Source: Candidatus Omnitrophota bacterium (GTDB taxonomy: Bacteria; Omnitrophota; Gorgyraeia; Gygaellales; Profunditerraquicolaceae). Taken from it: a stretch of DNA of 64,000 bases. The position numbers were made by a program, and so were the translations under genes. Below, one piece after another: positions 12,101 through 26,780 of the stretch (positions are counted from its first letter, which is position 1; every line of letters starts with the position of its first letter). Below the pieces are notes generated by a model, which saw only the letters and a list, made by a program, of their open reading frames with translations, did not search any database and was not told the DNA's origin. Where the stretch lies: assembly GCA_030693145.1 (NCBI GenBank), contig JAUYBI010000015.1, forward strand, positions 8,619 to 72,618, read 5' to 3'.

Positions 12101-12185
12101 GATTAACAATAGTAGGGTGGGTTTAAACCTTGGTTAACAATAGTAGGGTGGGTTTAAACCCACCCTACTATTGTTAACCAAGGTT
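12101..12185. repeat. One-and-a-half PalA T-variant copies. 12130-12181 is a 52-bp perfect palindrome (TTGGTTAACAATAGTAGGGTGGGTTTAAACCCACCCTACTATTGTTAACCAA)
   Basis: Read directly. Preceded by an extra left half, TTAACAATAGTAGGGTGGGTTTAAACC. Confidence 0.85.
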
Positions 12186-12240
12186 TGTTATACAGTCGGA
12201 GATTAATTGACTTGACAAAGGAGCCTATCTTTACTAAAAT

Positions 12241-12348: not shown

Positions 12349-12618
12349 ATGGTTTGGGAAGCAGCGACTGAAAGCAAGTTTAAGGTCTTAATTTCTAAGA
12401 TCCCGATATTCCATCGGCGGATTACCGAATCCGTAGTTAGGCGTCAAGCTGAAGAGATTGCCGCCAGGCGTAATGCATCTGGAGTCCAAGAGCAGGATGT
12501 GGTGGCGGCTTTTTTTTCGGATGTTCCCTCGCCATTTTACAGTATGATGGTCCGCCTGCTCGGGCAAAATGGGTTTGATTATAAAAAGTACGGTTTTCCT
12601 AAAAACATTAAAAAATAA
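12349..12618 (+). CDS. Small PCP_red-domain protein (protochlorophyllide-reductase 57 kDa C-terminal-domain-like), function unknown
   Basis: 89 aa. W..A...K....KIPIF.RR......R..AEE.A motif resembling the Pfam PCP_red domain. Directly precedes the oxidoreductase gene. Confidence 0.45.
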   Translation: MVWEAATESKFKVLISKIPIFHRRITESVVRRQAEEIAARRNASGVQEQDVVAAFFSDVPSPFYSMMVRLLGQNGFDYKKYGFPKNIKK

Positions 12619-13622
12619 TGCGGATTGCGGTTATTGGTGCCGGAGCCATAGGTTGTTTAGTCGCGGGTTACCTTAAAGAAAAAGGCGAAGAGGTAACTTT
12701 AGTCGGGCATGGCCATACAGTTAAGGCGATTCATGAGCATGGTGTCGCTATCTCCGGGGCCAGGGGAAGTTTTAAGGTGCCGGTGAGCATTGCCGACACC
12801 TTAAACTATATTCCGGATTTAGTAATTTTAACCACTAAAACGCAAAATATTGATTCGGCTTTAGCGGATAGCGCGCATTTAATACAAAACTCTTTGTTGC
12901 TCACCACGCAAAATGGCGTGCAGGCGGATAAGTTGGCGGCAAAATACCTGCCTGCCGAAAAGATTATTTCCAGCATCGTGATGTTCGGCGCGACCAGCTT
13001 AGAAAGCGGCAAGGTGGTGCATAATTTTGAAGGCAGCTGGATAATCGGCAGCCTTTTTAATTCCCACCCTACGGAATCCCTGATTTCTTTAAGCTTGGTT
13101 TTAGACAAGGCCTTTCCTGTGATTATCAGCCAGGATATGCAGGGAATGAAATATTTGAAAATTTTTGTCAATGCTAATAATTGCCTGCCGGCGATTATCG
13201 GCAAGAGCATGCAGGAAGTTTTTAGCGATTTAACGATGAGCCGGATCAGTATCGCTATCTGGAAAGAGGCTTTTGAGGTTTTTGATAAAATCGGGATAGA
13301 TTTAGTTTCTCTTCCCGGGTTTCCGGTGGAGAACCTCACCAAATTTACTACCATGCCCAGCGCGCATGCCGCGGAGATCTTTTCGGCCATGATGAGGAAT
13401 CTAAGCAAAGACCCGTTGTACGGCTCAATATTGCAGAGCATCATGCGCGGTAAACTTTCGGAGATTGATTATATTAACGGTGAATTCGTGCGCCTGGCTG
13501 AGGAAAACAATCTGCAGGCGCCATTGAATAAAATTTTGGTGGACATGGTGCATCAGGTAGAAGCAAACCGAAGATTTTTTAGTAAAGAAGATTTAATCCA
13601 GAAGACTAAGGAGCTGGTTTAG
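12618..13622 (+). CDS. 2-dehydropantoate 2-reductase family oxidoreductase (ApbA/PanE-like)
   Basis: N-terminal MRIAVIGAGAIGCLVAGYL Rossmann motif, DLVILTTK, and a C-terminal ApbA_C-like region (SEIDYINGEFV). 334 aa. Confidence 0.75.
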   Translation: MRIAVIGAGAIGCLVAGYLKEKGEEVTLVGHGHTVKAIHEHGVAISGARGSFKVPVSIADTLNYIPDLVILTTKTQNIDSALADSAHLIQNSLLLTTQNGVQADKLAAKYLPAEKIISSIVMFGATSLESGKVVHNFEGSWIIGSLFNSHPTESLISLSLVLDKAFPVIISQDMQGMKYLKIFVNANNCLPAIIGKSMQEVFSDLTMSRISIAIWKEAFEVFDKIGIDLVSLPGFPVENLTKFTTMPSAHAAEIFSAMMRNLSKDPLYGSILQSIMRGKLSEIDYINGEFVRLAEENNLQAPLNKILVDMVHQVEANRRFFSKEDLIQKTKELV

Positions 13623-13625
13623 ATA

Positions 13626-14213
13626 ATGAATGAAGTAAATACCCCCTTTCCGCGGCTAAGGCTTACCGTAACCCAAGTTATGGGTGTCTGTTACCATGGT
13701 TACAAAATTGGCGATGAGATTATTTTAGAAGATTTTACGCATGGGCCTAAACATTTCTGTTTAGGATTGGCGCACGCTCTTTTTCCGGTAATCTACGCTT
13801 TAAGCTTTGGCGCAAAATTTGGTTTTCGTGATAATCAGCGCTCGCTGTTGGTGACCTGTCCGGATGGAGGCAAGCTGGAGTTTAAAGCCGAGATTTTGGA
13901 TAAACAGGGTAAGCTTGAGGAAATTCCGCGCGACCCGGAACATAAGGGGCCGCAGCCTAAGAAAATGATTCTGGAAGTAGTGCAATCCAAGGGCAAGTGC
14001 ACTTTTGGATATAAAGTAGGTGATAAATGGGAAACGCAGGGTTTAAAATGTATTCCGGATTTTTGCGGAGCGGCATTTCACACTGCTTTTCCGGCTTTGT
14101 TTGCTTTAAATTTTGGAGCCCAGTTTTTCTTTATGCCCAATCCGGATACAATTGATACGGTTACTTGCCCGGATGGCGGGAATATTATTTTTAAAGTGAA
14201 AAGGATAGATTAA
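13626..14213 (+). CDS. Tandem-duplicated TIGR04076-like domain protein, function unknown
   Basis: Two internal repeats. Each carries C.HG.KIGDE ... FC.G.AHA.FP...AL.FGA.F ... CPDGG..F, the pattern I recall for the TIGR04076 small-protein family. Confidence 0.45.
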   Translation: MNEVNTPFPRLRLTVTQVMGVCYHGYKIGDEIILEDFTHGPKHFCLGLAHALFPVIYALSFGAKFGFRDNQRSLLVTCPDGGKLEFKAEILDKQGKLEEIPRDPEHKGPQPKKMILEVVQSKGKCTFGYKVGDKWETQGLKCIPDFCGAAFHTAFPALFALNFGAQFFFMPNPDTIDTVTCPDGGNIIFKVKRID

Positions 14214-14219
14214 AGTAGA

Positions 14220-14259
14220 GTAGGGGAGGTTTAAACCTCCCCTACAGTTGTGGATAACT
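14220..14259. repeat. PalA G-variant with the CAGTTGTGGATAACT tail
   Basis: Perfect 26-bp palindrome at 14220-14245. The tail carries TGTGGATAA. Confidence 0.85.
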
Positions 14260-14283
14260 CACAGTGTGAAAGGAAAAAGAGAA

Positions 14284-15543
14284 GTGATTAAACGCAGGGT
14301 AGTGATTACCGGCATTGGGGTAATTTCGCCTAATGGCATCGGTAAAAAGAATGCCTGGGAAGGTTTTGCCGGCGGAAAATCCGGGGTACGTTTAGTTGAT
14401 GGTTTTGATGTCTCAGTATTTAATACTAAAATTGCCGCGGAGGTGCGCGATTTTGATCCTTTTAAATTAGGCTTAAGCCATGAAGAAGCCATGCGCATGG
14501 ATCGCTATGTGCAATTTGGCGTAGCTGCCGGTAAAATGGCAGTGGAAGACAGTAAGTTGGACTTTTCTCAAGAAGATGTTCAGCGCATCGGCGTTTGTTT
14601 AGCTAATGCTATCTGCGGGACCAAATATATGGAAGAAGAGTTTGCTTTGGTTACTGACGACGGGAAAAAACCCATAGATCCGAGTTTAGTGCGGCCGGAT
14701 TTATATGATGCGGCAATGTTTAATACTCCGTCAATTGAAATCAGCGCGCGTTTCGGCTTAAAAGGAAGTTGTAATACTATTTCCACCGGATGCACCGCAG
14801 GCACGGATTCCTTAGGTTTTGGCCTGGAAAGTATTCAGGATGGGTCGTTGGATGTGATGATTTGCGGAGCAGCCGAAGCGCCGCTTACTCCGATTACCTT
14901 TGGCGCTTTTGACGTGGTAAATGTCTTATCAGTGCATAATGATGAGCCGCAAAAAGCATCGCGCCCCTTTGATAATAAAAGGGATGGGTTTGTTTTAGGA
15001 GAGGGGGCCGGGATACTGGTGCTGGAGGAATTAAATCACGCCTTAAAGCGGAATGCCCCGATTTATTGCGAGATTTTGGGTTTCGGCACCAGTTGTAATG
15101 CTTTTCATATGACGGATCTTCCTTCTGATGGACGGGCAATGGAGACCTGTATTGCCCTGGCCTTAAAAGATGCGCAGGTTAAACCCTCTGAAATTGATTA
15201 TATCAACGCGCATGGCTCAAGTACGCGGATGAATGATATTTTTGAAAGTAATGCTTATAAAGCGATTTTTGACGAAGCTGCCTATCAGCTGCCTATCAGT
15301 TCATTTAAATCTATGATCGGCCACCCTCTGGCTGCGGCTAATGCTATTGAGATGACGATTGCCGCGATGATTTTTGAGAAAAATATTCTTCCTCCGACGA
15401 TAAACCAAGAGGAAAAAGACCCGCAGTGTGACCTGTATTATATTCCCAATGAAGCGATACAGAAAAAAGTAAATATTATTTTAAAAACCAGCAGTGGTTT
15501 TTCAGGGATACACTCTTCGCTGGTTTTGAAACGATTTAAATAA
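14284..15543 (+). CDS. Beta-ketoacyl synthase (FabF/KS-alpha-like), catalytic Cys-His-His present
   Basis: VVITGIGVISPNG. Active-site ISTGCTAGTD. Conserved His residues at HGSSTRMND and SMIGHPLAAA. The track start (14248, TTG) lies inside the palindromic repeat. The GTG at 14284 gives MIKRRVVITG. Confidence 0.85.
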   Translation: MIKRRVVITGIGVISPNGIGKKNAWEGFAGGKSGVRLVDGFDVSVFNTKIAAEVRDFDPFKLGLSHEEAMRMDRYVQFGVAAGKMAVEDSKLDFSQEDVQRIGVCLANAICGTKYMEEEFALVTDDGKKPIDPSLVRPDLYDAAMFNTPSIEISARFGLKGSCNTISTGCTAGTDSLGFGLESIQDGSLDVMICGAAEAPLTPITFGAFDVVNVLSVHNDEPQKASRPFDNKRDGFVLGEGAGILVLEELNHALKRNAPIYCEILGFGTSCNAFHMTDLPSDGRAMETCIALALKDAQVKPSEIDYINAHGSSTRMNDIFESNAYKAIFDEAAYQLPISSFKSMIGHPLAAANAIEMTIAAMIFEKNILPPTINQEEKDPQCDLYYIPNEAIQKKVNIILKTSSGFSGIHSSLVLKRFK

Positions 15544-15611
15544 AGGGGACGGTTCTATTTTTTATAGAGCCTGTTTGATAAAAAAATAGAACCGTCCCCG
15601 GGATTTTAACT
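15543..15611. repeat. HpB hairpin with GGGATTTTAACT tail between the KS and CLF-like genes
   Basis: AAAGGGGACGGTTCTATTTTTT..AAAAAATAGAACCGTCCCC-GGGATTTT, ending at the ATG. Confidence 0.8.
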
Positions 15612-16841
15612 ATGAATAAAATTGCTATCACGGGTATCGGCGTAGTCAGCCCCTCAGGGATCGGCAAGCGGCAATTCTGGGCGAATATTAAAAGCGGACG
15701 CTCGTTCATTAAAAAGATTACGCGTTTTGATGCCAGCCTTTATCCTGCGCATATTGCCGGGCAAATTGATGACCTGGAAAAGTATAGCCATATCTCCGAG
15801 AGGCTGCTGAAGAAAATTGATGCTTTTTCACATATGGCGCTGGTGGCCGCAGAGCTGGCTTTGCAGGATGCCGGGATTGATATTAAGAATGAAGATCCGA
15901 ACCTGGTGGGTATCTTTTTAGGTAATGCTATTGGCGGCTGGCTTTACGCGGAGACAGAGTTAAGGGACCTGTATTTAGAGGGGCGCCAGGGTGTCTCACC
16001 TTACATGGCTAGCGCCTGGTTTCCGGCGGCACCTCAAGGCCAGGTTTCAATTTATTATGGGATTAAAGGTTTTAGCAAGACCGTAGTCAGCGACCGGGCC
16101 AGCTCCCTGATGGCGCTGGGCTATGCCCGGAAAGTTTTGGCTAAAAATAAACTAAACATGATTTTAGCCGGAGGGATGGAGGCGCCGGTTACTCCGTATG
16201 CTTTATTATGTTGTAATACCTATGGGGCGCTCTCTAAAAACAATGATCATCCGGCGGCAGCTTATCGTCCATTTGACCAGGAGCGCAGCGGTTTTGTGAT
16301 TGGCGAAGGCGCGGGGATTGTGGTCATGGAAAGTATTCAACGCGCCAGGGGCCGGGGCGCGAATATTTTAGGCTTAATTAGCGGCTATGGCACTTCTTGT
16401 GACGGGGTAAATAGAATTAATTGCGCTAGCGACGGGAAGGAACTGGCGCGGGCGATAAATATGGCGCTGGCGGATGCCCAAGTGGCTGCTGAAGAAATTG
16501 GTTATATCAGTTTAGACGGCTTGGCAGTGGAGCTTTGGGATAACTCCGAAATTAAAGCGCTAGAATTAGTTTTTGGGGAGAACTTAAAGAAAATTCCTGT
16601 AAGCTGCCCAAAATCTATGTTCGGGAATTTGCTGGGGGCTTCCGGTGTTTTAGATATGATTATCGCGCTTTTAACTATGGAGCATAGTTTAGTCCCTCCG
16701 ATATTGAATTTAGAGAAGCCGGCTTTAAACAGTTTAAATTATGTGGCTAAAGAGTCCAGGGAATATAAGGTAAGTAAATCTTTGATTATTTCACGCGGAA
16801 GAGGCGGGATTAATTCGGTTTTGGTTGTTGAGAAATTATAA
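15612..16841 (+). CDS. Ketosynthase-like partner lacking the catalytic triad (chain-length-factor / KS-beta-like)
   Basis: KS fold (IAITGIGVVSPSG). At the active-site position the sequence is VVSDRASSLMALG, with Arg in place of Cys. Neither conserved His is present (LDGLAVELWD, SMFGNLLGAS). Confidence 0.75.
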   Translation: MNKIAITGIGVVSPSGIGKRQFWANIKSGRSFIKKITRFDASLYPAHIAGQIDDLEKYSHISERLLKKIDAFSHMALVAAELALQDAGIDIKNEDPNLVGIFLGNAIGGWLYAETELRDLYLEGRQGVSPYMASAWFPAAPQGQVSIYYGIKGFSKTVVSDRASSLMALGYARKVLAKNKLNMILAGGMEAPVTPYALLCCNTYGALSKNNDHPAAAYRPFDQERSGFVIGEGAGIVVMESIQRARGRGANILGLISGYGTSCDGVNRINCASDGKELARAINMALADAQVAAEEIGYISLDGLAVELWDNSEIKALELVFGENLKKIPVSCPKSMFGNLLGASGVLDMIIALLTMEHSLVPPILNLEKPALNSLNYVAKESREYKVSKSLIISRGRGGINSVLVVEKL

Positions 16842-16842
16842 G

Positions 16843-16882
16843 GCAGGGGAGGTTTAAACCTCCCCATGTTTTAAAACGGAGG
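16843..16882. repeat. Truncated PalA (GCAGGGGAGGTTTAAACCTCCCC) fused to the ATGTTTTAAAACGGAGG RBS module
   Basis: A chimera of the two repeat families directly upstream of the radical SAM gene start. Confidence 0.7.
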
Positions 16883-16886
16883 AAAT

Positions 16887-18347
16887 ATGAAAATACTATT
16901 TGTTATGCCGAAAGTCGGTGCTTGGGCAACGCATGGAACACATCGTTCTCCGAATCAGTTATACGCGCATTGGGCGGCTTATGCGCGCGAAAGAGGCTAT
17001 GAGGATGTTTCTGTCTTAGACGGTAAAGCAGATCAAATTCCGATGGACGCTCTGATTGAACAAGTAAAACTTAAAAATCCGGATATCGTGGTGATGGGGG
17101 AGCAGCTGCACGGTTATGGCGGATATGGAGTTCTGCGGCATTTTAAAGATGCGGCCCTGGGGATTAAAAAAGCGCTGCCGAGAACAAAAATAATTCTCGG
17201 TGGGTTATGGTATTCCGCAATGCCGGTGCCGACATTAGAGGAGAATCCCGCGGTTGATTTTGTGGTGATGGGGGAAGAAGAATCTTTCGGAGATTTGATT
17301 GAGGCCATCGATAAAAATAAGCCTTTTGGCGACGTGGGCGGAGTCACTTCCCGCGTTGCCGGGGAAATTGTCATGGGCCCCCATAAGCCGCTGATGGAAG
17401 ATTTAGACAAGCTTCCTCTGCCGGCCTATGATTTATTTCCGATGGATAAATATGTAGGCCACACCTATTGGAAACCATTTGTGGATATCGTTACTTCGCG
17501 GGGATGCCCTTCAGCGTGCACCTTTTGTTATGAATGGGATCAGTTTGACCCGCGTTCACCTTCAGATTTCTTGAAATGGCGGGCGAAGTCTCCGGAAAGA
17601 GTTATGGAGGAGCTGAATCTTTTGCATCGAAAGTACGGAGTTAAAGTCGTGGTTATCCAGGACGACAATTTTAATGTCGACCCTAAAAGAGTACAGAAGT
17701 TCTGTGAACTTAAAAAAGCATCGAACAATCCGATTAAGTGGGTATCTTTAGGCCGGGCTATTGATTGGGTTAATTGTGAATCCATCCTGCCCCTGATGAA
17801 GGAAAATGGTTTATTCATGGGTGTTTTCGGTATTGAGGTTACCACGCAATCAGAGCTCAAGCGCATCGCTAAAGGTATTACCATTGACCAGATTAAGAAA
17901 ACCATAGAGATCCTGCGCAAAAATGATATCGCGATTGTCGCCGATATCATGATGGGTTTTGATTATGACACCGAAGCGATTATCAAGCAGCGTTTTGAGT
18001 TTACGGATCAGGTGGATCCGGATATTCTTTGGGTGGGCTATGTTACTCCTGCCCCGAATTCGCCGATGTGGAGGATTGCTTTAAAGAAAAACTGGATTGA
18101 TCCTAAAAAAGTAGATTTTAGCCGGTGGGATTTCTTGCATCCGGTAATTCCTACGGACCATCTGTCTACGGAAGATCTCGGACGCCTGGGTTCCTGGTGT
18201 ATGCGTGAATTTTTTTCCAAGCCCGGGCGCATTAATAGAATTATGGAAAGTGATTTTGATCCATTAGCTAAGCTTTGCTTTCAGGACGTGATGGCCGGAG
18301 TTGGTAAATGGGAAGCAGCCGCAACCAAGGGCGAAGTGCAGATATAG
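16887..18347 (+). CDS. B12-binding-domain radical SAM enzyme (class B radical SAM)
   Basis: N-terminal cobalamin-binding-like domain. Radical SAM core with a CPSACTFC (CxxxCxxC) cluster motif. 486 aa. Confidence 0.8.
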   Translation: MKILFVMPKVGAWATHGTHRSPNQLYAHWAAYARERGYEDVSVLDGKADQIPMDALIEQVKLKNPDIVVMGEQLHGYGGYGVLRHFKDAALGIKKALPRTKIILGGLWYSAMPVPTLEENPAVDFVVMGEEESFGDLIEAIDKNKPFGDVGGVTSRVAGEIVMGPHKPLMEDLDKLPLPAYDLFPMDKYVGHTYWKPFVDIVTSRGCPSACTFCYEWDQFDPRSPSDFLKWRAKSPERVMEELNLLHRKYGVKVVVIQDDNFNVDPKRVQKFCELKKASNNPIKWVSLGRAIDWVNCESILPLMKENGLFMGVFGIEVTTQSELKRIAKGITIDQIKKTIEILRKNDIAIVADIMMGFDYDTEAIIKQRFEFTDQVDPDILWVGYVTPAPNSPMWRIALKKNWIDPKKVDFSRWDFLHPVIPTDHLSTEDLGRLGSWCMREFFSKPGRINRIMESDFDPLAKLCFQDVMAGVGKWEAAATKGEVQI

Positions 18348-18352
18348 AATTA

Positions 18353-18430
18353 AATCAAGGGGACGGTTCTATTTTTCCGTCGCCCAACTGGTTTGAAAAA
18401 CAGAACCGTCCCCATGTTTTAAAACGGAGG
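18353..18430. repeat. HpB hairpin plus the conserved ATGTTTTAAAACGGAGG RBS module upstream of the ACP gene
   Basis: AATCAAGGGGACGGTTCTATTTTTCCGTCGC...CAGAACCGTCCCC-ATGTTTTAAAACGGAGGATAAATG. Confidence 0.8.
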
Positions 18431-18434
18431 ATAA

Positions 18435-18671
18435 ATGGATACAAAAATAAAAATAAAAGAAGTATTGAGCAGTTTATTAAAAGTAAAAATTGAGGAATTA
18501 AAAGACGGCTCTACTTTAATTGACAGCATCGGCGTGGATTCTACGGAGATGGTGGAATCGGTGATTGCCCTGGAAAAATCATTCGGGGTGAAGCTTAGCC
18601 CCAAAGAGATTACCAAGAACTCAACGATTAACGATATCGTAAATAATATCCAGTCAAAGTTAAATAAATAA
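18435..18671 (+). CDS. Acyl carrier protein
   Basis: 78 aa. Phosphopantetheine attachment motif LIDSIGVDSTEMVE (DSxGxDS). Confidence 0.8.
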   Translation: MDTKIKIKEVLSSLLKVKIEELKDGSTLIDSIGVDSTEMVESVIALEKSFGVKLSPKEITKNSTINDIVNNIQSKLNK

Positions 18672-18673
18672 AG

Positions 18674-18711
18674 TTATCCACAACCGTAGGGTGGGTTTAA
18701 ACCCACCCTAC
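18674..18711. repeat. PalA T-variant in inverted tail orientation (TTATCCACAACC-GTAGGGTGGGTTTAAACCCACCCTAC)
   Basis: Perfect palindrome. TTATCCACA precedes it. Confidence 0.85.
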
Positions 18712-18740
18712 AGGGGTAAATAAAAAGAGGAGCCAGCCGG

Positions 18741-19541
18741 GTGAAGATAGTTGATTTAAGCCTGCCCATCGATGAGTCGGCTTTTGAGGTGCACAAGGTG
18801 GATATTGAACGGATAACGCATCGAGCCGGTGTAGATAAATTTAATCGCGTGATTATGGGCAAGGCCCTGTGGGGTAAAATAAAATACGCCTTAGGACAGC
18901 GCATCGTGAAAAAAGAACAGCTGCCCGACGAAGAATTTCTCTCCTTAGAGATCGTGCACGCTCCGGTGCATATCGGAACACACCTGGATTATTCTTTCCA
19001 TTACGGCTCAAAATCAGAGAACCGCGCCTCCAAGACCGCGGATGAGATCCCGTTAGAATATTGTTATCAGGATGGGGTTAAACTTGATTTTAGGCATAAA
19101 AAACCCAATGAGGTAATCAAGGCAGCGGATATAGAAAGCGCTCTAAAGAAGACAAATTATCAACTTAAGCCTTTAGATATTGTATTATTACAGACGGCAG
19201 CGGATAAGCTTTATGGCGGGCCAAAATATTTTTCCGATTATCCTGGCGTAGATCCCTCAGCTATAGAATATCTTTTAGATAAAGGAATTAAGATCTTTGG
19301 CGTAGACACGATGGGGATTGACCGGCCGTATAGATTTATGCTCAGTGAATTTATTAAGACCAAAGATCCAAAGACATTTTATCCAGCGCATTTTTATGGC
19401 CGTAAAAGAGAATTTATCCATATCGAGCGGCTGGCGAACCTGGAAAAAATACCGGATTCCGGTTTTAAGATTCTTTGTTTTCCGATACGCATAAAGAATA
19501 CTGGCGCAGCTTGGGCCAGAGTAGTTGCTCTTTTAGATTAA
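18741..19541 (+). CDS. Cyclase-family protein (Pfam Cyclase / kynurenine-formamidase-like fold)
   Basis: GTG start after RBS aagaggag. HAPVHIGTHLDYSFHYG matches the HxGTHxDxPxH metal-binding motif of the putative cyclase family. Confidence 0.65.
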   Translation: MKIVDLSLPIDESAFEVHKVDIERITHRAGVDKFNRVIMGKALWGKIKYALGQRIVKKEQLPDEEFLSLEIVHAPVHIGTHLDYSFHYGSKSENRASKTADEIPLEYCYQDGVKLDFRHKKPNEVIKAADIESALKKTNYQLKPLDIVLLQTAADKLYGGPKYFSDYPGVDPSAIEYLLDKGIKIFGVDTMGIDRPYRFMLSEFIKTKDPKTFYPAHFYGRKREFIHIERLANLEKIPDSGFKILCFPIRIKNTGAAWARVVALLD

Positions 19542-19548
19542 AATTAAA

Positions 19549-19626
19549 AATCAAGGGGACGGTTCTGTTTTTCCGTCGCTTAATCTAATTGAAAAATAGA
19601 ACCGTCCCCATGTTTTAAAACGGAGG
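19549..19626. repeat. HpB hairpin plus the ATGTTTTAAAACGGAGG module upstream of the SRPBCC gene
   Basis: About 85% identical to the 18353 copy, including the loop TTTTTCCGTCGC. Confidence 0.8.
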
Positions 19627-19631
19627 GACAA

Positions 19632-20072
19632 ATGGGCCACACGTGTAACTCGATTATTATTAATGCGCCTTATGGTTTAGTTTTTGATATTTCTAATGAT
19701 ATTACGCGTTGGACGGAGTTATTCGGTACGGAATATAAAAAAGCAGAGGTAGTGAAGAAAGAATCCAATAAGATTACTTTTCGCCTGACGGATGAAGATG
19801 ATAAATCCTGGCAATCCTGGCGGCTGCTTTTTAAGGATAAGTATTTTGCCTATGCGGAAAGGGAGGAGCCCAAATTTCCTTTTAAATATATGAAGATCAT
19901 CTGGCTTTATACGCCTAAACCAGAAGGAATAGAAATGGCCTGGATCCAACATTTTGAGATGGAGCAAAAGGCTAAGTTTAATGATGCGCAGATTGAAGGG
20001 TTTATTAATGAAGGCTCGCAGGATAATTTGAAGATTTTTAAAGAGATTATTGAAAAAGAAGCGCTGAAGTGA
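19632..20072 (+). CDS. SRPBCC-fold protein (polyketide cyclase/dehydrase-like, Polyketide_cyc2-like)
   Basis: 146 aa. N-terminal IINAPYGLVFDISNDITRWTELF resembles the I.AP.E.VW..L.D.E.WP.W start of Polyketide_cyc2/SRPBCC proteins. Confidence 0.45.
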   Translation: MGHTCNSIIINAPYGLVFDISNDITRWTELFGTEYKKAEVVKKESNKITFRLTDEDDKSWQSWRLLFKDKYFAYAEREEPKFPFKYMKIIWLYTPKPEGIEMAWIQHFEMEQKAKFNDAQIEGFINEGSQDNLKIFKEIIEKEALK

Positions 20073-21199
20073 AAAAGGCTACATTTAGTATACTTTGCCT
20101 GGAAGGAGCGGTTTTATCATTTAATGTGGCCGCTGCCGCAGCCCTGATCCCGTCAATTGCCGCGGATTTTGCTCTTTCTCAGTTTTTTGTGGGTAAGATA
20201 ATTTGGCTATATATGCTCCCCTATGGACTGGCGGCATTTCTTTATGGGCCGCTGGTGCGCGCTTTTGATGCGCGGAAAGTAGAGCTGGCCTGTATCTTCT
20301 TATTCTCCCTGGCTAATCTTCTGGCAGGTTTAGCTCCGGATATTCATACGCTTTTTGCAGCCAGGTTTCTCATGGGGATTTTTGGCGCCTCGGTAATTCC
20401 GCTGGGTTTAATTCTGATTGCTAAACATATCCGGCAGAATAAGCGCGGAGGCTATGTGGGAATATTTTTTGGCTGGACCTTTGTTGCTTCTTTACTGGGG
20501 TTATTTTTAAGCGGGTTAATTCCCTGGCGCTGGATATTTATAATTCCGGCAGTTTTAGGGCTGGTTCTGTGGGTTTTTATGTATTTTTATTTGCCTAGTT
20601 TTAAAGAAGGCCTGGGGGTTTTTCGTTTCGGGTATCTGGAAGCATTTAAAGATAAGAAAGTAGCGAGGATCTTTCTTTACATCTTTCTGATTAGTTTAAT
20701 TTATCATGGGGTGCAGCAGTGGCTGGGGGTTTATTTTTCTACGCAGCTTTTCTTAAACCAGTTTACGATTAGCATGATGATTACCTTAACCAGCTTGAGC
20801 GGAATATTCGGGGAATTTTGGGGAGGACATCTTGCGGATCAGCTAGGCAGGCCCAGAGTAGTAAGCCTGGGTATTATTGCCATGGTTCTGGGCATCCTTT
20901 TGCTTTTATTAAAATTGCCTTTAACCTTACTCGGCCTGGCGATGATCATTTGGGGCTTGGGTTGGACCTTTAATCATGTAGGCTTGGCGACGATGTTAAC
21001 GGACCTGCCGCCAGAATTCTTAAATGAAGCGGCTAGCTTAAATAGCGGAGTGCGTTTTATTGCCGGCGGGCTGGGGGTAAGTTTAGGCGGCCTGTTGATG
21101 CTTAAAAGTTTTAATTTTGGTTTTGTTATTTTTGGCAGCGCGCTGGTTTTGCTTTTATTTTCAGGCAGAGTGTTTAAATTTAAACAACCGGCAAATTGA
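20069..21199 (+). CDS. MFS transporter
   Basis: 376 aa. About 12 predicted TM helices with MFS-like loops (DQLGRPRV). The GTG start overlaps the upstream stop (GTGA). Confidence 0.75.
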   Translation: MKKATFSILCLEGAVLSFNVAAAAALIPSIAADFALSQFFVGKIIWLYMLPYGLAAFLYGPLVRAFDARKVELACIFLFSLANLLAGLAPDIHTLFAARFLMGIFGASVIPLGLILIAKHIRQNKRGGYVGIFFGWTFVASLLGLFLSGLIPWRWIFIIPAVLGLVLWVFMYFYLPSFKEGLGVFRFGYLEAFKDKKVARIFLYIFLISLIYHGVQQWLGVYFSTQLFLNQFTISMMITLTSLSGIFGEFWGGHLADQLGRPRVVSLGIIAMVLGILLLLLKLPLTLLGLAMIIWGLGWTFNHVGLATMLTDLPPEFLNEAASLNSGVRFIAGGLGVSLGGLLMLKSFNFGFVIFGSALVLLLFSGRVFKFKQPAN

Positions 21200-21239
21200 C
21201 CGGGGCCGTTGTAGAGAGAATTTCAAAGGAGGATTTATC

Positions 21240-22016
21240 ATGGGTACGGATTTAAAAGGACGTGTTGCTATCATTACCGGAGCCAGCCGCGGTATTGGCA
21301 AGGCCCTGGCTTGCACTGCGGCAAGCCTGGGAATAAATTTGGTGATCGGCGCCCGCGGCCAGGAAGCTTTAAATGAGGCCGCCGCAGAGATTGCCGGAAA
21401 ATTTAAAGTACAGGTTTTGCCGGTGGCTTGCGATGTGACCAAGCTGGAGGATTTGGAGAAGCTGGTTAAAAGCGCCAAGGAAAAGTTTGGCCAGATCGAT
21501 ATTCTGATCAATAATGCCGGAGTTTCCAGCCAGTATCCTTTTCAGGATCAGCCAATCGAAGATTTCGAAAGGTTGGCCCACACCAATTACCTGGGTTATG
21601 TCAGGCTTATCCGCCTGGTGATTAATGATATGATCAAGAATAAAAGCGGAGCGATTATTAATATGGTTTCCGGCTCGACTTTATGCGACCCGCTGCCTAG
21701 GAATTTTATCGTTTACAGTTCACTTAAGGTTGGCTTAAGGGCATTTTCTAAAGGATTATTTTGGGAACTGCGCGATCATGGGATCAAAGTGACTTCGATA
21801 TTGCCCGGAGTAACCGATACGGATTTAACCGGTAAATTACAGGAGATTACCGCGGATACCTCGCGTTTAATGACTACCGAAGCGATTGAGAATGCCGTGC
21901 GTTTTGCTTTGACTGTGCCGGCGAATGTCTGCCCTTTAGAGATCGCGGTGATTAACCAACAGACACCCTGGACTGCTCCGGTGATACCGTTTCAACAGCG
22001 GCATCCGGGAAAGTAA
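21240..22016 (+). CDS. Short-chain dehydrogenase/reductase (SDR, ketoreductase-like)
   Basis: GRVAIITGASRGIGKALA NAD(P)-binding motif and INNAG. The ATG at 21240 follows RBS aaggagg. The track start at 21117 overlaps the MFS gene. Confidence 0.8.
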   Translation: MGTDLKGRVAIITGASRGIGKALACTAASLGINLVIGARGQEALNEAAAEIAGKFKVQVLPVACDVTKLEDLEKLVKSAKEKFGQIDILINNAGVSSQYPFQDQPIEDFERLAHTNYLGYVRLIRLVINDMIKNKSGAIINMVSGSTLCDPLPRNFIVYSSLKVGLRAFSKGLFWELRDHGIKVTSILPGVTDTDLTGKLQEITADTSRLMTTEAIENAVRFALTVPANVCPLEIAVINQQTPWTAPVIPFQQRHPGK

Positions 22017-22025
22017 AAAGGAAAT

Positions 22026-22445
22026 ATGAATAATCAGGATATTAAGAATTTAAAGAAGCGTTATTTTATCTGGCTCTATAAAGCCGCCAAAGAAACCTTT
22101 GATAAATACGAGCGTAAGTTTACGCAAGTGGATATTGATAAGGATATCCTGGAAGAGATGGAGAAAGAGCTTTTAGGCTCCTATCTTCCTCATGAAAAAG
22201 ACGCCCTGCAAATGCAGATCAACGATTTTCAAAAATATATCGAGAATAAAGAAAAGTCTTGTTCAGAATTCAGGGATCAGCATAAAAAGATCAATCCGGA
22301 TTTTATTTTCTCAGAGATAAAACTGAATGCTATTGAGAAAGTAATTGTTAAGGGGTTAGGCAAAAGAGGCTTAGAGGAAATAAAATCCCTTTATGAAAAA
22401 GAAATGACTGAACGCATCTTAAAGAATACGGAGCTTTCCCGGTAA
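22026..22445 (+). CDS. Hypothetical helical protein
   Basis: 139-aa ORF inside the operon. Lys/Glu-rich with no recognisable motif. Confidence 0.4.
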   Translation: MNNQDIKNLKKRYFIWLYKAAKETFDKYERKFTQVDIDKDILEEMEKELLGSYLPHEKDALQMQINDFQKYIENKEKSCSEFRDQHKKINPDFIFSEIKLNAIEKVIVKGLGKRGLEEIKSLYEKEMTERILKNTELSR

Positions 22446-23356
22446 TGTTAATTGACGCGCATAGCCATTGGCTGCCGGAAGAAATAATTACTAATGCCCA
22501 TTTTTTTCATAAAGGATGGGGTGAGATTGAGGTGCAGCTTAAGGTTATGGATGAGGCAGGAATTGACCGGGCAGTCTTAAGTTATCCCACAACAGACGCG
22601 CATTTAAAGTTAGGCAGTATCAGCCAAGTAGCGCATATTTATAATGATAATGTTGCCAAGATTTTAAAAGCTTATCCGGAAAGATTTATCGGTGCGGCGG
22701 TTTTACCGGTAGATAATTCTTATGATATGCTGGAAGAGCTAAAGCGGGCAATCAATGAGTTAGGTTTTAAGGCAATTTCCCTTGCCTCAAGTTATAACGG
22801 TATATATTTGGATGACAAGATGTTTTTACCTATATATAAAGAAGCACAAGAAAAGGATATCCCGATCTTTGTGCATGCGCAAATTGTGAACCCGATAGGT
22901 TTTGAGCGGGTTAAGGATCCTCTGCTTACCCCGGTAGTGGAATATGTTTTTGATACTACGATTTCAATCGGCAAGCTTTTAATGTCGGATATTCTACGGC
23001 AGTATCCTAAGGTAAAATTTATTTTCGCCCATTTTGGCGGGGCAATCTGCTATCTAAAGCAGCGCTTTGACGCCACTTATCAGATGCTGCGGGAGATGAA
23101 CTTTGTTAAAGACTTACAGGGGCTTCCTTCAGATTATTTTAAGAATATCTACGTCGATACCAGCGGCGATACGACTAAGGCGAATTTCCTGCTTGCTCTT
23201 GAACTCATGGGCCCAGAACATATTTTGTGGGGCTCTGACTGGCCAGCTAAAAAAGATATGGCCAGTGGTATTAAAGCTGTCAATGATTTGGATATATCTG
23301 GAGAGGATAAACAAAATATCTTGGGTAGTAATTTAGAGAAGATATTCGCTCTTTAG
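22445..23356 (+). CDS. Amidohydrolase-2 family protein (ACMSD/decarboxylase/hydratase-like TIM-barrel metalloenzyme)
   Basis: MLIDAHSHWLPEE N-terminal metal-binding motif typical of Amidohydro_2. The start overlaps the upstream stop (TAATG). Confidence 0.65.
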   Translation: MLIDAHSHWLPEEIITNAHFFHKGWGEIEVQLKVMDEAGIDRAVLSYPTTDAHLKLGSISQVAHIYNDNVAKILKAYPERFIGAAVLPVDNSYDMLEELKRAINELGFKAISLASSYNGIYLDDKMFLPIYKEAQEKDIPIFVHAQIVNPIGFERVKDPLLTPVVEYVFDTTISIGKLLMSDILRQYPKVKFIFAHFGGAICYLKQRFDATYQMLREMNFVKDLQGLPSDYFKNIYVDTSGDTTKANFLLALELMGPEHILWGSDWPAKKDMASGIKAVNDLDISGEDKQNILGSNLEKIFAL

Positions 23357-23462
23357 CAATTTTTGCGGGTCCCCGCCACTAAATCGTTGGCGGGCAGGCT
23401 GTCTTGGGTATTTTCTAGCGCTGACGCGCGTCGAAAACACCCAAGCCACCCGCAAAATAGAC
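23357..23462. repeat. GC-rich palindromic element, family D (TTTTTGCGGGT..CTTGGGTATTTTC..GAAAACACCCAAG..ACCCGCAAAA) with an internal 26-bp hairpin insert. Left boundary of the AT-rich islet
   Basis: Near-reverse-complement of the 28745 element. About 65% GC in a ~42% GC background. Confidence 0.7.
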
Positions 23463-23528
23463 AAATTAATAGACTCTCAGAGTTAGTGAAAATAGAAACG
23501 GTCCCATTATTTTCTCAAGGAGGGGGCG

Positions 23529-24191
23529 ATGGAAAAAGAAACATTAGCGCTGATTCAGGTAATATCAGAGAATTCATCGTTCAAAGAATCTATTCTAAAA
23601 ACATTATTAGTAGCAATTTTAAGTGGTACAGCAGTATATTATGTTCCTAGATTGTTCAAGTTGATTAAACACCGCAGTAAACCGATTCTAACTTATCATT
23701 TTAATGGAGATACTTATTTAGAGTTAGATAAAATAAGACATTCTTTTGGGAAGAAAACGGTGGATAAGGGTGCGTCTAATGGTAAAGCGTGGGAACATAC
23801 AACGGATCAGATAGATGGAGGAGCAACTACCTGTTATGGGCCATACACCAAAGAGATACCTTTTCGAGGGAAATATAAAGCAAGATTTCGAATAAAACTC
23901 TGCGGAATAAAAGACAATAATTCCCATATTATAACTTTAGATGTTGCTTATGGGAAGTTAAGTGCAGATGAAACTAAGATGCAATTAGGGTTGCTTAAAA
24001 CCGAGAGACACTTGAGAACTGCAGATTTTATTGATGGTAAATATAAAGATTTTGATGTCGAATTCGAATACGACGGAGAATCATTGGTAGAATTTAGATG
24101 TTCAGTGCTTAGTCCTTTTAATTTTACAAATAGAGTTAGCCGAATATTTTTTGATAATGTAAAAGTATTTTTGGTATCAGAATTAATTTAG
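23529..24191 (+). CDS. Hypothetical single-TM protein, AT-rich, function unknown
   Basis: 220 aa. N-terminal TM helix (LLVAILSGTAVYYV) and a soluble domain with no recognisable motif. Flanked by degenerate inverted half-copies of the GGACGGTTCT hairpin family. RBS aaggaggg. Confidence 0.5.
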   Translation: MEKETLALIQVISENSSFKESILKTLLVAILSGTAVYYVPRLFKLIKHRSKPILTYHFNGDTYLELDKIRHSFGKKTVDKGASNGKAWEHTTDQIDGGATTCYGPYTKEIPFRGKYKARFRIKLCGIKDNNSHIITLDVAYGKLSADETKMQLGLLKTERHLRTADFIDGKYKDFDVEFEYDGESLVEFRCSVLSPFNFTNRVSRIFFDNVKVFLVSELI

Positions 24192-24205
24192 TTTCTGTAA
24201 TAAAA

Positions 24206-24856
24206 GTGACCGTTTCTATTTTTTTCAAGGAGATTTTAAAAGAAATGACCAAATATGAAAAATGCGATCTTATAATTGCTGCTGTAGCTGCTTTTTTTAC
24301 AACTACGGCTATAATCTGGGTTTTATTTAAAGAAACAATACTGGCTCGCTGGAGAGCGCCAAAATTACAAAGTCTTATTAATATGGATATGCCTTATGTA
24401 ACAAAACAAGGGAGAACTTATTATTATCATTTAGGGATTAAGAATATTGGTAGGGCGACTGCTCAAAATTGTCGTGGTTATGTCGACAGAATTTATGAAT
24501 ATAATAATGGACAATATGAAAGAATAAAGAATTTTATGCCTATGCCGTTATATTGGGCTAGAGAAGAGAAGTCAGCCACATTCATTGGGCCAGACCAGGA
24601 GAAATTCCTGGATTTGGGTACTATTGACACAGATTGTTCATATGCTGTAGGTAAGCGCCCATTTGTATTATGGTTTAGAGAATATAGTGATACCAGCCGG
24701 CTTTTCCTGGGTAGATATAAGATTAGGATTATTTTATATTCCGAAAATACAGAAAGTTTACCTGTAGAATTATATATTAGTTGGAGTGGTCAGGCTAAAG
24801 AAGAATATATGGATATGCTGAAAGAATTAATAATAAGTAAAGAATTAATAAAATAA
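24206..24856 (+). CDS. Hypothetical single-TM protein, AT-rich, function unknown
   Basis: 216 aa. N-terminal TM helix (LIIAAVAAFFTTTAIIWVLF) and a soluble domain rich in Tyr/Arg. No recognisable motif. Confidence 0.5.
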   Translation: MTVSIFFKEILKEMTKYEKCDLIIAAVAAFFTTTAIIWVLFKETILARWRAPKLQSLINMDMPYVTKQGRTYYYHLGIKNIGRATAQNCRGYVDRIYEYNNGQYERIKNFMPMPLYWAREEKSATFIGPDQEKFLDLGTIDTDCSYAVGKRPFVLWFREYSDTSRLFLGRYKIRIILYSENTESLPVELYISWSGQAKEEYMDMLKELIISKELIK

Positions 24857-24865
24857 GGTAGGGAT

Positions 24866-24955
24866 ATATTTTAGCGGGTGACACGGAGGCGGGTCCCCTG
24901 CCGCGCGCAACGCAAGTGAGCACGGTAGGGTGCCGCAGTGGCAGGACGCGCGTAA
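24866..24955. repeat. GC-rich structured element (TTTTAGCGGGTG...CGCGCG) directly upstream of crcB
   Basis: About 70% GC with multiple complementary GC-rich blocks. It does not fit the fluoride riboswitch consensus by eye. Confidence 0.55.
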
Positions 24956-24960
24956 GTATT

Positions 24961-25335
24961 ATGATGAAATTATTGAACTTGATTATTGGGGGAGCGGTAG
25001 GGACAGTTGCCAGGTATTTTTTAGCCGGCGTTGTTTACAGGTTTATGGGTGCTGGGTTCCCTTATGGTACATTAATTGTAAATATCAGCGGCTGTTTTAT
25101 CCTGGGTTTTTTAGCTGCTTTATCGGATAAGAAATTTATTCTTGGGCCGGATGCGCGCCTATTGTTGATGATTGGTTTTTGCGGGGCTTTTACCACATTC
25201 TCAACCTTGATCTTTGAGTCTGATAGCTTAGTTAGAAATGGCCAGGCAATCCGTGCTTTTACTAATATCTTTGCCAGCGTAATTTTAGGCTTTATATTAT
25301 TTAGAGTAGGCAGTTTATTAGGAGAGATAATATGA
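24961..25335 (+). CDS. crcB: Fluoride ion channel CrcB/FluC
   Basis: 124 aa from the ATG at 24961 (MMKLLNLIIGGAVGTVARY..., GFCGAFTTFSTL). Four TM helices typical of the Fluc family. The upstream part of the track ORF translates a GC-rich structured element. Confidence 0.8.
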   Translation: MMKLLNLIIGGAVGTVARYFLAGVVYRFMGAGFPYGTLIVNISGCFILGFLAALSDKKFILGPDARLLLMIGFCGAFTTFSTLIFESDSLVRNGQAIRAFTNIFASVILGFILFRVGSLLGEII

Positions 25336-25661
25336 AAATTCCCGCGGATGGAAAACTTTTGCGTATTTTTATTGGTGAAGCAGACAAATGGAATGGCAAG
25401 CCACTTTATGAAGAGATTGTGTTTTTAGCCAAGAAAAACGGTTTAGCTGGAGCAACGGCAATTAAAGGGTTTATGGGGTTTGGCTGTAAAAGCCATATGC
25501 ATACGGCTAATTTACTGCGGCTTTCCGAGGACCTGCCGGTGGTTATTGAAATCGTGGATAGCGAAGAAAAAATCAATCAATTTATTCCCCAACTGGATAG
25601 CATGGTTAAGGAAGGATTGGTTACTCTTGAAAAGGCAAACGTGATTATGTACCGGGCTTAA
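25332..25661 (+). CDS. DUF190-family small protein (commonly paired with crcB)
   Basis: 109 aa. LLRIFIGEADKWNGKPLYE ... GATAIKGFMGFG resembles DUF190. Start overlaps the crcB stop (ATGA). Confidence 0.6.
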   Translation: MKIPADGKLLRIFIGEADKWNGKPLYEEIVFLAKKNGLAGATAIKGFMGFGCKSHMHTANLLRLSEDLPVVIEIVDSEEKINQFIPQLDSMVKEGLVTLEKANVIMYRA

Positions 25662-25744
25662 TTTAAGAAAAAACGAGCGGGAAGATATGAGCTTGACAAT
25701 GTTCTCAGATATGATACAATTGTTCTCAAAGGGAGAACAGTAAG

Positions 25745-26323
25745 ATGCTCAGTGCGTTAATATCGTCTGGCTCGCGAAGAAAAATCCTGACTCAATTTTT
25801 GTCTCATCCGGATGAGAAATACTATGTCCGGCAGTTAGCGGTTATTCTTGGAGTATCAGTGGGAACAATTCATCGTGAGCTTATTCGGCTGCAGGGCAGC
25901 GGTATATTAAATTCGGATAACGTAGGTAATTTAAGGTTTTTCCGCGTAAATAAAGCGTCGCCGGTTTTTAAAGAATTAAAACAGATTATCTTTAAAACCG
26001 AGGGTGTCCAGGGCAGGCTTAAAGCAAAGTTAAAAGACCTAAAAGGGCTTAAAACCAGCTTTATTTATGGATCATTTGCCAAGAGAGAAGAAAACGCGCA
26101 TAGCGATATTGATCTTTTTCTCTTAGGTGATATTTCCGAAGATGAGTTAATTCAAAGAATAAGTGCTTTGGAGGGAGAGTTTGACAGGGAAATAAATTTT
26201 ACAATTTATACGGTTTCTGATTTTAAGAAAGAGATGAAAAGAGGTGGCTCTTTTCTAAGAGATGTAATTAAGAACCCGAAGATTTTTTTGGTTGGTAGTA
26301 TGGATGTGTTGAATGGATTATAA
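25745..26323 (+). CDS. Winged-HTH plus minimal nucleotidyltransferase (MNT) protein
   Basis: N-terminal ArsR-like HTH (YVRQLAVILGVSVGTIHRELIRL). NTase motif GSFAKREENAHSDIDLFLLGD (GS..DxD). Confidence 0.65.
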   Translation: MLSALISSGSRRKILTQFLSHPDEKYYVRQLAVILGVSVGTIHRELIRLQGSGILNSDNVGNLRFFRVNKASPVFKELKQIIFKTEGVQGRLKAKLKDLKGLKTSFIYGSFAKREENAHSDIDLFLLGDISEDELIQRISALEGEFDREINFTIYTVSDFKKEMKRGGSFLRDVIKNPKIFLVGSMDVLNGL

Positions 26324-26780
26324 TAAATTTATTGAAGATTATTTATCCCGTGGTTTAATTAAAAAACAGCCTGTTGGTTTTGATCAGATAAATAGTTTTA
26401 TAACACAATCAAAGCAGGAATTAAAAGATTGTAATAATATATTGGATATAAGCGCGAAAATCGCCTATTCATCGGCGTATACGGCAATGCTTTACGCGGC
26501 GCGGGCGTTGATGTTACTTGCCGGGTATCGGCCGGCGGGAGTTAATCAGCATAAGACAGTAATTGAATTTGTTGGCGTATGCGCGGGGGATGAATATAGA
26601 GATTTGATTAAGAAGTTTGACGTGATGCGTAAGAAAAGAAATTTACTTATGTATGAACCTTGGGAGGTTAATGTGTCTCCTGCCGATTCTAGAAATGCGG
26701 TAAATACTGCCGCGGAGTTTATCGAGTTTATCATAGTTAAGATTAAGAAAGATAATCCGCAGGATGAATTTGAGTTTTAG
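26313..26780 (+). CDS. HEPN-domain protein (partner of the upstream MNT)
   Basis: 155 aa, overlapping the MNT gene by 11 nt. HEPN-like helical region AKIAYSSAYTAMLYAARALMLLAGYRP. Confidence 0.6.
   Translation: MDYNKFIEDYLSRGLIKKQPVGFDQINSFITQSKQELKDCNNILDISAKIAYSSAYTAMLYAARALMLLAGYRPAGVNQHKTVIEFVGVCAGDEYRDLIKKFDVMRKKRNLLMYEPWEVNVSPADSRNAVNTAAEFIEFIIVKIKKDNPQDEFEF

Follow-up and report, generated by a model that had tools for sequence, protein, structure and literature searches.

Type II polyketide synthases (PKSs) are known almost entirely from aerobic actinomycetes, in which oxygenases carry out the tailoring. The closest described relatives of the locus considered here are the tetracenomycin (tcm) and WhiE PKSs of Streptomyces, built on a ketosynthase-alpha (KS-alpha), a chain-length factor (CLF) and an acyl carrier protein (ACP) and provided with mono-domain SRPBCC aromatase/cyclases (ARO/CYCs), together with the AntA-I anthraquinone PKS of Photorhabdus (PDB 6smo) and uncharacterised type II clusters on plasmids of Bacillus bombysepticus and Azospirillum brasilense. 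The Omnitrophota are an uncultured, anaerobic, ultra-small diderm lineage, and to our knowledge almost nothing has been established experimentally about their physiology. In a stretch of 64,000 nucleotides from Candidatus Omnitrophota (contig JAUYBI010000015.1; hereafter the window), 13 genes at positions 12349-23356 probably form the operon of an iterative, dissociated (type II) PKS that would make one specific aromatic polyketide under anoxic conditions. Comparison of the encoded proteins with known families supports the view that the cluster is a true type II PKS, and not FabF/FabB housekeeping, ladderane or aryl-polyene machinery. KS-CLF pairs from Ca. Omnitrophica were included without characterisation in a 2023 catalogue (PMC10132072). 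Our search of the full-text literature found no characterisation of the cluster, only this catalogue mention and reports of 'ladderane' biosynthetic gene clusters (BGCs); the 'ladderane' BGC calls made in Omnitrophota may be related to it. An initial annotation, made from the letters of the window alone, had proposed an undescribed biosynthetic system, provided that a diderm candidate-phylum origin were confirmed; the KS-CLF pairs themselves had already been catalogued.

The 13 open reading frames (ORFs), all on the plus strand, fill the interval with spacers of 0-90 bases or overlaps, as expected from the ten or more tightly packed, co-directional genes of the initial annotation. Family assignments were made by Pfam and NCBIfam profile scans of the window proteins. 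Other products of the window are LptE, a BamD-like lipoprotein, a lipid A acyltransferase and Lnt, as well as a type II secretion system (T2SS)/type IV pilus and an ATP synthase; since LptE, the BamD-like protein and the lipid A acyltransferase are present, the host is diderm, and with its relatives in Omnitrophota it is the diderm candidate phylum, Candidatus Omnitrophota, that had been suspected.

The ketosynthase pair carries most of the argument. Aligned with E. coli FabF, KS1 (14248-15543) keeps the Cys/His/His/Lys residues and is predicted from them to be a catalytically competent ketosynthase of the KS-alpha type, as the initial annotation had it; its real start may be some 10 codons further on than the TTG codon. 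In KS2 (15612-16841), the chain-length-factor partner, the same alignment places Arg162 at the position of the Cys and Asp302 and Asn339 at those of the two His residues, in keeping with the earlier description of a KS-fold protein that has lost its catalytic triad. A neighbour-joining tree of 20 sequences (300 bootstraps), in which six FabF, one FabB and NodE represent enzymes outside the KS-alpha and CLF groups, places KS1 within the KS-alpha clade (99% bootstrap) with type II PKS proteins of Streptomyces, Azospirillum and Bacillus, and KS2 within the CLF clade with the Streptomyces CLFs (100% bootstrap). Both branch away from FabF, FabB and NodE, so that neither falls inside the FabF/FabB clades, and both fail the fabF equivalog TIGR03150 (KS1 459.6 and KS2 367.4 bits against a cutoff of 493.75). 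Among PDB entries KS1 is matched best by AntD of the Photorhabdus PKS (378 bits), followed by the act KS (372) and FabF (350). Its best matches among 72,556 PLSDB plasmids all lie in KS-CLF-ACP clusters of Azospirillum, Bacillus and Streptomyces, which also carry SRPBCC, cyclase, ketoreductase (KR) or TcmI genes, and it is 46-48% identical to the ketosynthases of the B. bombysepticus and A. brasilense clusters. A ketosynthase of the cispentacin AmcF type was considered and rejected (169 bits for KS1 and 145 for KS2, where the cutoff is 325).

KS2 has in common with the Streptomyces CLFs an Asp that precedes the lost Cys and a change of His to Asp, and differs from them in reading VSDRASS where they read VSDQAGG, an Arg thus replacing the Gln that serves decarboxylative priming in canonical actinobacterial systems. 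The D-R-A-S-S motif recurs in the Bacillus and Azospirillum CLFs. In a library of 1.8 billion proteins clustered at 50% identity, the nearest representatives of KS2 are 59% and then 41-47% identical, and many of them carry D-R-A-S; this makes the Arg-type CLF a widespread environmental variant, and the Arg marks a variant type of CLF without excluding KS2 from the clade. Among the nearest relatives of the Arg-type CLF, several single proteins of 780-870 residues (P0362, P0371, P0380 and P0388) consist of two KS-fold halves, as KS-CLF fusions; one of them, P0371, has the D-R-A-S motif in its second half. The Cys/His/His/Lys set of KS1 is invariant in 78-79 loci and the Arg/Asp/Asn set of KS2 in 84 sequences, as are the KS2 gate residues W/A/L/S, which correspond to F109/T112/F116/F133 of the act CLF. 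This combination differs from the F/T/F/F of act and fits no known rule, and no chain length is claimed from it.

The remaining core genes fit the same type of system. The discrete ACP predicted by the initial annotation lies at 18435-18671 (PP-binding match), its phosphopantetheine-attachment serine, Ser36 of a DS(T) motif, being invariant in 62 loci. The SRPBCC protein (19632-20072), likewise foreseen as TcmN-like, scores 28 bits with Polyketide_cyc against a gathering score of 23.4 and matches the TcmN and WhiE ARO/CYC structures with E-values from 9e-25 to 6e-23 (2rez, 8.7e-25; 3tl1, 2.8e-23). It is a mono-domain aromatase/cyclase of the TcmN/WhiE type that keeps the TcmN residues W28, F32, E34, Y35, W65, S67, R69, F88, M91, W95, Q110 and N136, and its pocket residues are invariant in 61-63 loci. 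The proposed cyclase-family protein (18741-19541) is a PF04199 metal-dependent enzyme (103 bits) with an HxGTHxDxxxH motif that does not vary across loci; it is 45% identical to the PF04199 cyclase of the B. bombysepticus plasmid cluster and weakly matches isatin hydrolase and kynurenine formamidase. With both of these profile thresholds passed and the ketosynthases placed as above, the type II PKS interpretation is supported, and the refuting outcomes named in the initial annotation did not come about. The last gene of the cluster (22445-23356) encodes the expected amidohydrolase (Amidohydro_2, 113 bits), whose nearest relatives are non-oxidative aromatic-acid decarboxylases: the best structural match is the 5-carboxyvanillate decarboxylase LigW (1.8e-27), with ACMSD and the gamma-resorcylate and 2,3-dihydroxybenzoate decarboxylases also among the best, and its HxH motif is invariant across loci.

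Two reductases accompany this core. One is a classical short-chain dehydrogenase/reductase (SDR; adh_short), a FabG-like ketoreductase as annotated, for which the start at 21117, from which the ORF is open, gives way to a most likely start at 21240 (21240-22016). The other, g02 (12618-13622), is an NAD(P)H oxidoreductase of the ketopantoate-reductase (ApbA/PanE) family; this family call stood (TIGR00745, 185 bits, cutoff 141), every equivalog model failed, and identity across loci is 50-86%. The neighbouring g03 (13626-14213) is the tandem TIGR04076 protein of the initial annotation, matched in two stretches (96 bits) that form two Cys/His-rich repeats; its predicted structure, of moderate confidence, gives a weak XdhC-like match from which no function is claimed, and a role as cofactor or metal chaperone is at most weakly suggested. 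The first gene, g01 (12349-12618), encodes an 89-residue mini-protein for which the assignment to PCP_red fell short in the window itself (17.7 bits against a Pfam threshold of 32.5) and found consistent weak backing in its orthologs, 17 of 17 of which match DUF2621 (best 7e-7) and 10 of 17 PCP_red, all below the gathering score; a profile search of the PDB found no relative, and the gene, remotely DUF2621/PCP_red-like, is conserved in 65 loci. A 139-residue Lys/Glu-rich protein, g12 (22026-22445), has no family in Pfam, NCBIfam or PHROG and is conserved in 51 loci (46-91% identity). The transporter of the major facilitator superfamily (MFS) at 20069-21199 (MFS_1 match), a presumed exporter as before, is the sole cluster gene that relatives dispense with: it is gone from about 20 related loci, and in 13 loci a resistance-nodulation-division (RND) pump stands upstream in its place.

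The enzyme that most distinguishes the cluster is encoded between KS2 and the ACP (16887-18347). It combines an N-terminal B12-binding domain with a radical S-adenosylmethionine (SAM) core whose CxxxCxxC motif is invariant across loci, an architecture in common with the BchE/HpnJ group, to which it is distantly similar. Its scores with the best NCBIfam models lie far below their cutoffs (BchE TIGR02026, 204 against 481 bits; HpnJ, 151 against 578), as does that with TIGR04072, the ladderane-type 'lipid biosynthesis B12-binding radical SAM' model (65.8 against 360), and the tetrapyrrole or hopanoid gene context of that group is missing here. A BchE-type Mg-protoporphyrin cyclase was accordingly rejected, TIGR02026 having failed and the window containing no bch genes. 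The predicted structure (pLDDT 78, pTM 0.84) matches AprD4, TsrM, MgmA, TokK, CysS and OxsB about equally, which points to class B and does not reveal the reaction; domain content and predicted fold together place the protein among the class B (cobalamin-dependent) radical SAM enzymes, where the initial annotation had put it. The family is very uniform, the best 120 database clusters sharing no less than 72% identity and, with few exceptions, a length of exactly 486 residues; identity across loci is 78-96%.

To assess conservation we drew relatives from a KS2 scan of species-representative genomes (the best 80 of 124) and compared gene order by tblastn of all window proteins against the relatives' loci. 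Among these best 80, KS2 is 76-98% identical, and most are named Candidatus Omnitrophota, with a minority named Planctomycetales or unclassified. Wherever the contig is long enough the 13 genes stand in the same order (about 80 Omnitrophota species, their proteins 60-98% identical), an arrangement far beyond chance; the flanks vary, and the 13 genes are the only block kept in every locus. The identities across loci of the KS pair, typically 76-98%, and of the radical SAM enzyme, typically 78-96%, match that of the neighbouring T2SS ATPase (about 90%) and exceed those of the other flanking proteins. Such housekeeping-level conservation across the lineage makes a constitutive physiological role probable, rather than that of a strain-specific antibiotic, and recalls whiE, which is likewise kept across a whole lineage and is not strain-specific. 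Catalytic residues are invariant across 53-84 orthologous loci, and together with the invariant CLF gate this argues for one conserved product. The full block, again in the same order, is also found on contigs of 1.6 to 3.3 Mb named Thermodesulfobacteriota by NCBI, where the radical SAM enzyme is 78% identical to that of the window.

The surroundings of the block add to this picture. A PadR-family regulator, of the phenolic-acid type, directly precedes g01 in 36 of the 54 relatives with enough upstream sequence (e.g., L008 5199-6655 and L070 835-2291), a position that counts in favour of a type II PKS, and in 29 of the 54 accA, which contributes to malonyl-CoA supply, lies before PadR. No PadR gene was found in the window, where a REP-like hairpin of 20 bp (12132-12179) closes the upstream T2SS operon and is followed by a candidate sigma-70-like promoter (12212-12240, plus strand; TTGACA-17-TAAAAT, 11/12), named as such by consensus match alone. 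The T2SS operon lies upstream in the window and in eight relatives; since neither PadR nor accA is present there and the cluster directly borders the T2SS/pilus operon, the block has changed its position within the phylum. At the Thermodesulfobacteriota locus (L082) the cluster is flanked at 3208-5574 and 19031-21461 by MarR and an MMPL/sterol-sensing-domain transporter before it and by DUF1329/DUF1302 proteins (LolA-like, of the outer-membrane lipoprotein-sorting type), gene families that hint at a hydrophobic product exported to the envelope in that phylum.

A further set of five genes, all on the plus strand at 27992-33758, is linked to the cluster: d1, a nucleoside phosphorylase (PNP_UDP_1; 27992-28741); d2, an MtnA-like sugar-1-phosphate isomerase of the IF-2B family (28826-29740; TIGR00524, 199 bits, cutoff 186); d3, a class II aldolase that carries a fused SCP2 (hydrophobic-ligand) domain at its C-terminus (29756-30751); d4, an NAD(P)-dependent aldehyde dehydrogenase (30748-32235); and d5, an acyl-CoA ligase of the long-chain/aryl type (32235-33758; PRK06187, 440 bits), which reaches only 253 of 729 bits with the acetate-CoA ligase model and is not an acetyl-CoA synthetase. 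Whereas d2 passes TIGR00524, d1 and d3 pass no equivalog model. The cluster is followed by d1-d3 in almost every locus whose flank is long enough, that of Thermodesulfobacteriota included, and is preceded by the module in two (L051 and L071). The fused aldolase is full-length in L082 (53% identity); in all six loci whose available flank gave a tblastn match to d4, this gene comes after d3; d5 adjoins the module in L051, L071 and L064, and the Thermodesulfobacteriota locus has neither d4 nor d5. It is probable that the functional unit is larger than 12349-23356. The three families, in the same order and near a radical SAM enzyme, are those of the dihydroxyacetone phosphate (DHAP) shunt (MtnP or a kinase, MtnA/DrdI and Ald2/DrdA), from which the module differs in the SCP2 fusion of d3, in a d1 more like uridine/purine phosphorylases than MtnP, and in the d4 and d5 that Omnitrophota add. 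Salvage of the radical SAM by-product 5'-deoxyadenosine through the 5-deoxyribose/DHAP shunt is established (PMC6079011, PMC10986504). The radical SAM enzyme beside which the module stands necessarily produces 5'-deoxyadenosine, and most likely, by analogy with that shunt, the module removes and recycles this inhibitory compound by a DHAP-shunt-like route.

From these genes we propose the following pathway. The KS/CLF pair would extend an ACP-bound poly-beta-keto chain from malonyl units, with malonyl transferase and phosphopantetheinyl transferase (PPTase) provided from elsewhere in the genome. The ARO/CYC would fold the chain and aromatise its first ring (C9-C14 type), the PF04199 cyclase would close a further ring, the amidohydrolase would take off the terminal aromatic carboxylate, and the SDR and the PanE-like reductase would adjust keto groups. 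The B12-radical SAM enzyme could provide an oxygen-independent C-H functionalisation, of which C-methylation seems most likely and oxidation or cyclisation possible, and in doing so would stand in for the oxygenases or SAM methyltransferases of aerobes. The MFS pump, or the RND pump in some relatives, would export the product, which might be a pigment, some membrane or redox-active compound, or else a weapon in a host-dependent lifestyle.

Several observations weigh against this proposal, in whole or in part. By plain phmmer, FabF structures outscore the act CLF as matches to KS2, and the classical CLF Gln is replaced by Arg162 in all 84 KS2 orthologs, so that priming may differ from that of canonical systems. 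Neither a malonyl-CoA:ACP transacylase nor a PPTase was found in the cluster or the window. The SDR shows the same 31% identity to E. coli FabG as to the type II PKS ketoreductases of Streptomyces, and the pairing of a KR with a mono-domain ARO/CYC of the TcmN type is uncommon. No equivalog family fits the radical SAM enzyme, and the structure that it matches best, AprD4, is that of a dehydratase and not of a methylase. In the linked module d1 matches uridine/purine phosphorylase models better than that of methylthioadenosine (MTA) phosphorylase, and salvage accounts weakly for d4-d5, since d5 is not acetate-specific. Large protein-library searches returned no cultured carrier, only proteins from metagenome-assembled genomes (MAGs) or metagenomes.

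Some of these points could be turned towards fatty-acid or lipid synthesis. That the KS genes encode housekeeping FabF/FabB-type fatty acid synthases with accidental neighbours would agree with FabF as the best plain PDB match of KS2 and with accA upstream in 29 relatives. The Cys/His/His of KS2 is, however, lost in every one of the 84 sequences, neither ketosynthase reaches the fabF equivalog cutoff, the tree sets both apart from FabF/FabB, no FabH or FabD match occurs anywhere in the window, and the 13 genes move as a block between genomic contexts and phyla; we regard this explanation as extremely improbable and reject it on the cutoff, the tree and the missing FabH/FabD. A pathway of lipid or fatty-acid type, specialised for a ladderane-like, an aryl-polyene-like or another unusual acyl chain, would have the KS pair elongate a chain that is for the most part reduced, the radical SAM enzyme modify this alkyl chain and the 'cyclases' do something else; it would agree with the antiSMASH 'ladderane' clusters reported from Omnitrophota and Desulfobacterota MAGs (10.1101/2022.12.20.521206), with a KS1 score above the cutoff of the FabF-like subfamily NF005589 (447 > 387), with the MMPL lipid-type transporter and LolA-like DUF1329/DUF1302 genes beside the Thermodesulfobacteriota cluster, and with the FabG-like SDR. 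It is very unlikely nonetheless. A ladderane-type system was rejected on the failure of TIGR04072 (66 against 360); the dehydratase pair, ammonia-lyase, acyl/glycosyltransferases and LolA-like protein of aryl-polyene clusters are not among the 13 conserved genes, in line with the absences listed in the initial annotation, nor is an enoyl reductase; the tree assigns the two ketosynthases to the KS-alpha and CLF clades, and neither reaches the fabF equivalog cutoff; the TcmN-type pocket is intact and invariant; and the amidohydrolase is a homologue of aromatic-acid decarboxylases.

The linked module permits another interpretation, in which the radical SAM enzyme would not be a methylase. HpnH (hopanoid) and MqnE (futalosine) are adenosylating radical SAM enzymes, and the enzyme here might similarly add a 5'-deoxyadenosyl group to a pathway intermediate, with d1-d5 processing the adduct in what would be one pathway of 18 genes. 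The phosphorylase would remove adenine, as HpnG and MqnB do, the isomerase and aldolase would cut the ribose to DHAP and an aldehyde two carbons longer, the SCP2 domain would hold the hydrophobic part, and the dehydrogenase and ligase would give an acyl-CoA that primes, or derives from, the polyketide. Several findings allow for such an adenosylated intermediate, among them the SCP2 domain, a ligase that is not of the acetate type and a weak resemblance to HpnG: d1-d3 travel with the cluster across phyla in two arrangements, the hydrophobic-ligand domain of the aldolase is conserved, d5 is a long-chain/aryl-type ligase rather than an acetyl-CoA synthetase, d1 matches HpnG at 47 bits, and an Arg-type CLF may not prime from malonyl-ACP, so leaving room for a non-acetate starter. 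On the other side, HpnH and MqnE, the known adenosylating enzymes, are without the cobalamin-binding domain that the present enzyme possesses, the Thermodesulfobacteriota locus lacks d4-d5, and no KSIII or acyltransferase is present for loading a starter. The d1-d3 trio is, moreover, the exact composition of the DHAP shunt for 5'-deoxyadenosine and MTA (PMC6079011, PMC10986504). We consider the adduct unlikely, and give only a small chance to its fuller form, in which the B12-radical SAM enzyme would take the place of oxygenases and the module would act on the adenosylated intermediate of a hitherto undescribed kind of 18-gene pathway to a lineage-wide, physiologically essential aromatic metabolite made wholly without oxygen, the candidates being a polyketide-derived quinone-like electron carrier, a membrane compound or a pigment. 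A type II PKS with an associated salvage module remains the preferred reading of the locus.

In the window, the cluster and its usually adjacent module are separated by an insertion of low G+C content (23363-27956; 0.37-0.39, compared with about 0.43 elsewhere). It holds two orphan proteins (23529-24191 and 24206-24856) without a Pfam, NCBIfam or PHROG family, a nucleotidyltransferase/HEPN pair (25745-26780), a Fic/DOC protein (27534-27956) and the fluoride-export pair CrcB and DUF190; no fluoride riboswitch was detected in this stretch at the Rfam gathering score. Of the genes compared, the orphans, CrcB and DUF190 are not found between the cluster and d1 in most relatives.

Two families of hairpins are scattered through the window. 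The first is a REP-like perfect palindrome, GTAGGG[G/T][G/A]GGTTTAAACC..CCCTAC, found in intergenic spacers at about 23 sites (44 strand matches against 0 expected), for example at 2374-2399, 2449-2474, 4779-4804, 12112-12168, 14220-14245, 16843-16865, 18686-18711, 40475-40553 and 60361-60427. The PKS operon has several of these palindromes between its genes. Some copies include GGAGG, which could double as a ribosome-binding site or mask one. The second family consists of AAGGGGACGGTTCTATTTTT, about 17 nucleotides and AAAAATAGAACCGTCCCC (17 strand matches against 0.1 expected) and occurs at 104-137, 15545-15599, 18359-18413, 19555-19609, 27064-27075, 42529-42571, 52766-52799 and 61942-61994; three of its members lie inside the operon, in the KS1/KS2, radical SAM/ACP and cyclase/ARO spacers, each being followed by ...TTTTAAAACGGAGG before the next start codon. 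These intergenic hairpins are genome-wide REP-like repeats, and a role as cluster-specific regulatory elements was rejected. Elsewhere in the window, the ATP synthase operon opens with a single 239-residue ORF (181-900) that matches both ATP-synt_B and delta/OSCP, which suggests a fused b-delta stalk protein, and genes for tRNA-Leu(CAA) (minus strand) and tRNA-Ala(GGC) (plus strand) diverge at 35623-35848. A 256-residue ORF without a family (35757-36527, minus strand) overlaps the tRNA-Ala gene and over its whole span is probably not a real gene.

Compared with the described systems, then, the cluster has the KS-alpha/CLF/ACP core and the TcmN pocket residues of the tcm and whiE clusters, and lacks their TcmI/TcmJ-type cyclase, oxygenase and O-methyltransferase; it has instead a B12-radical SAM enzyme, a PanE-like reductase and a TIGR04076 protein, in an anaerobic diderm candidate phylum. 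The Bacillus and Azospirillum clusters, which resemble it in their ketosynthases and D-R-A-S-S CLFs, have FAD oxidoreductases, ABM monooxygenases, cupins and SAM O-methyltransferases for oxygen-dependent tailoring as well as their own PPTase, none of which the Omnitrophota cluster carries, whereas the class B radical SAM enzyme is a feature of the latter. Judged by its gene content, the cluster is set apart from known type II PKSs by its Arg-type CLF, by the want of oxygen-dependent tailoring genes, by its radical SAM, PanE-like and TIGR04076 genes, by its linkage to a salvage-like module and by its conservation across a lineage. It offers a compact and tractable target for the study of aromatic polyketide priming without the CLF glutamine and of tailoring without oxygen, and it introduces a new and very sharply delimited family of class B radical SAM enzymes, whose substrate is likely to be aromatic. 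Its product would be a candidate marker metabolite for the physiology of Omnitrophota, for the cluster probably makes an unknown aromatic compound of importance to the whole lineage.

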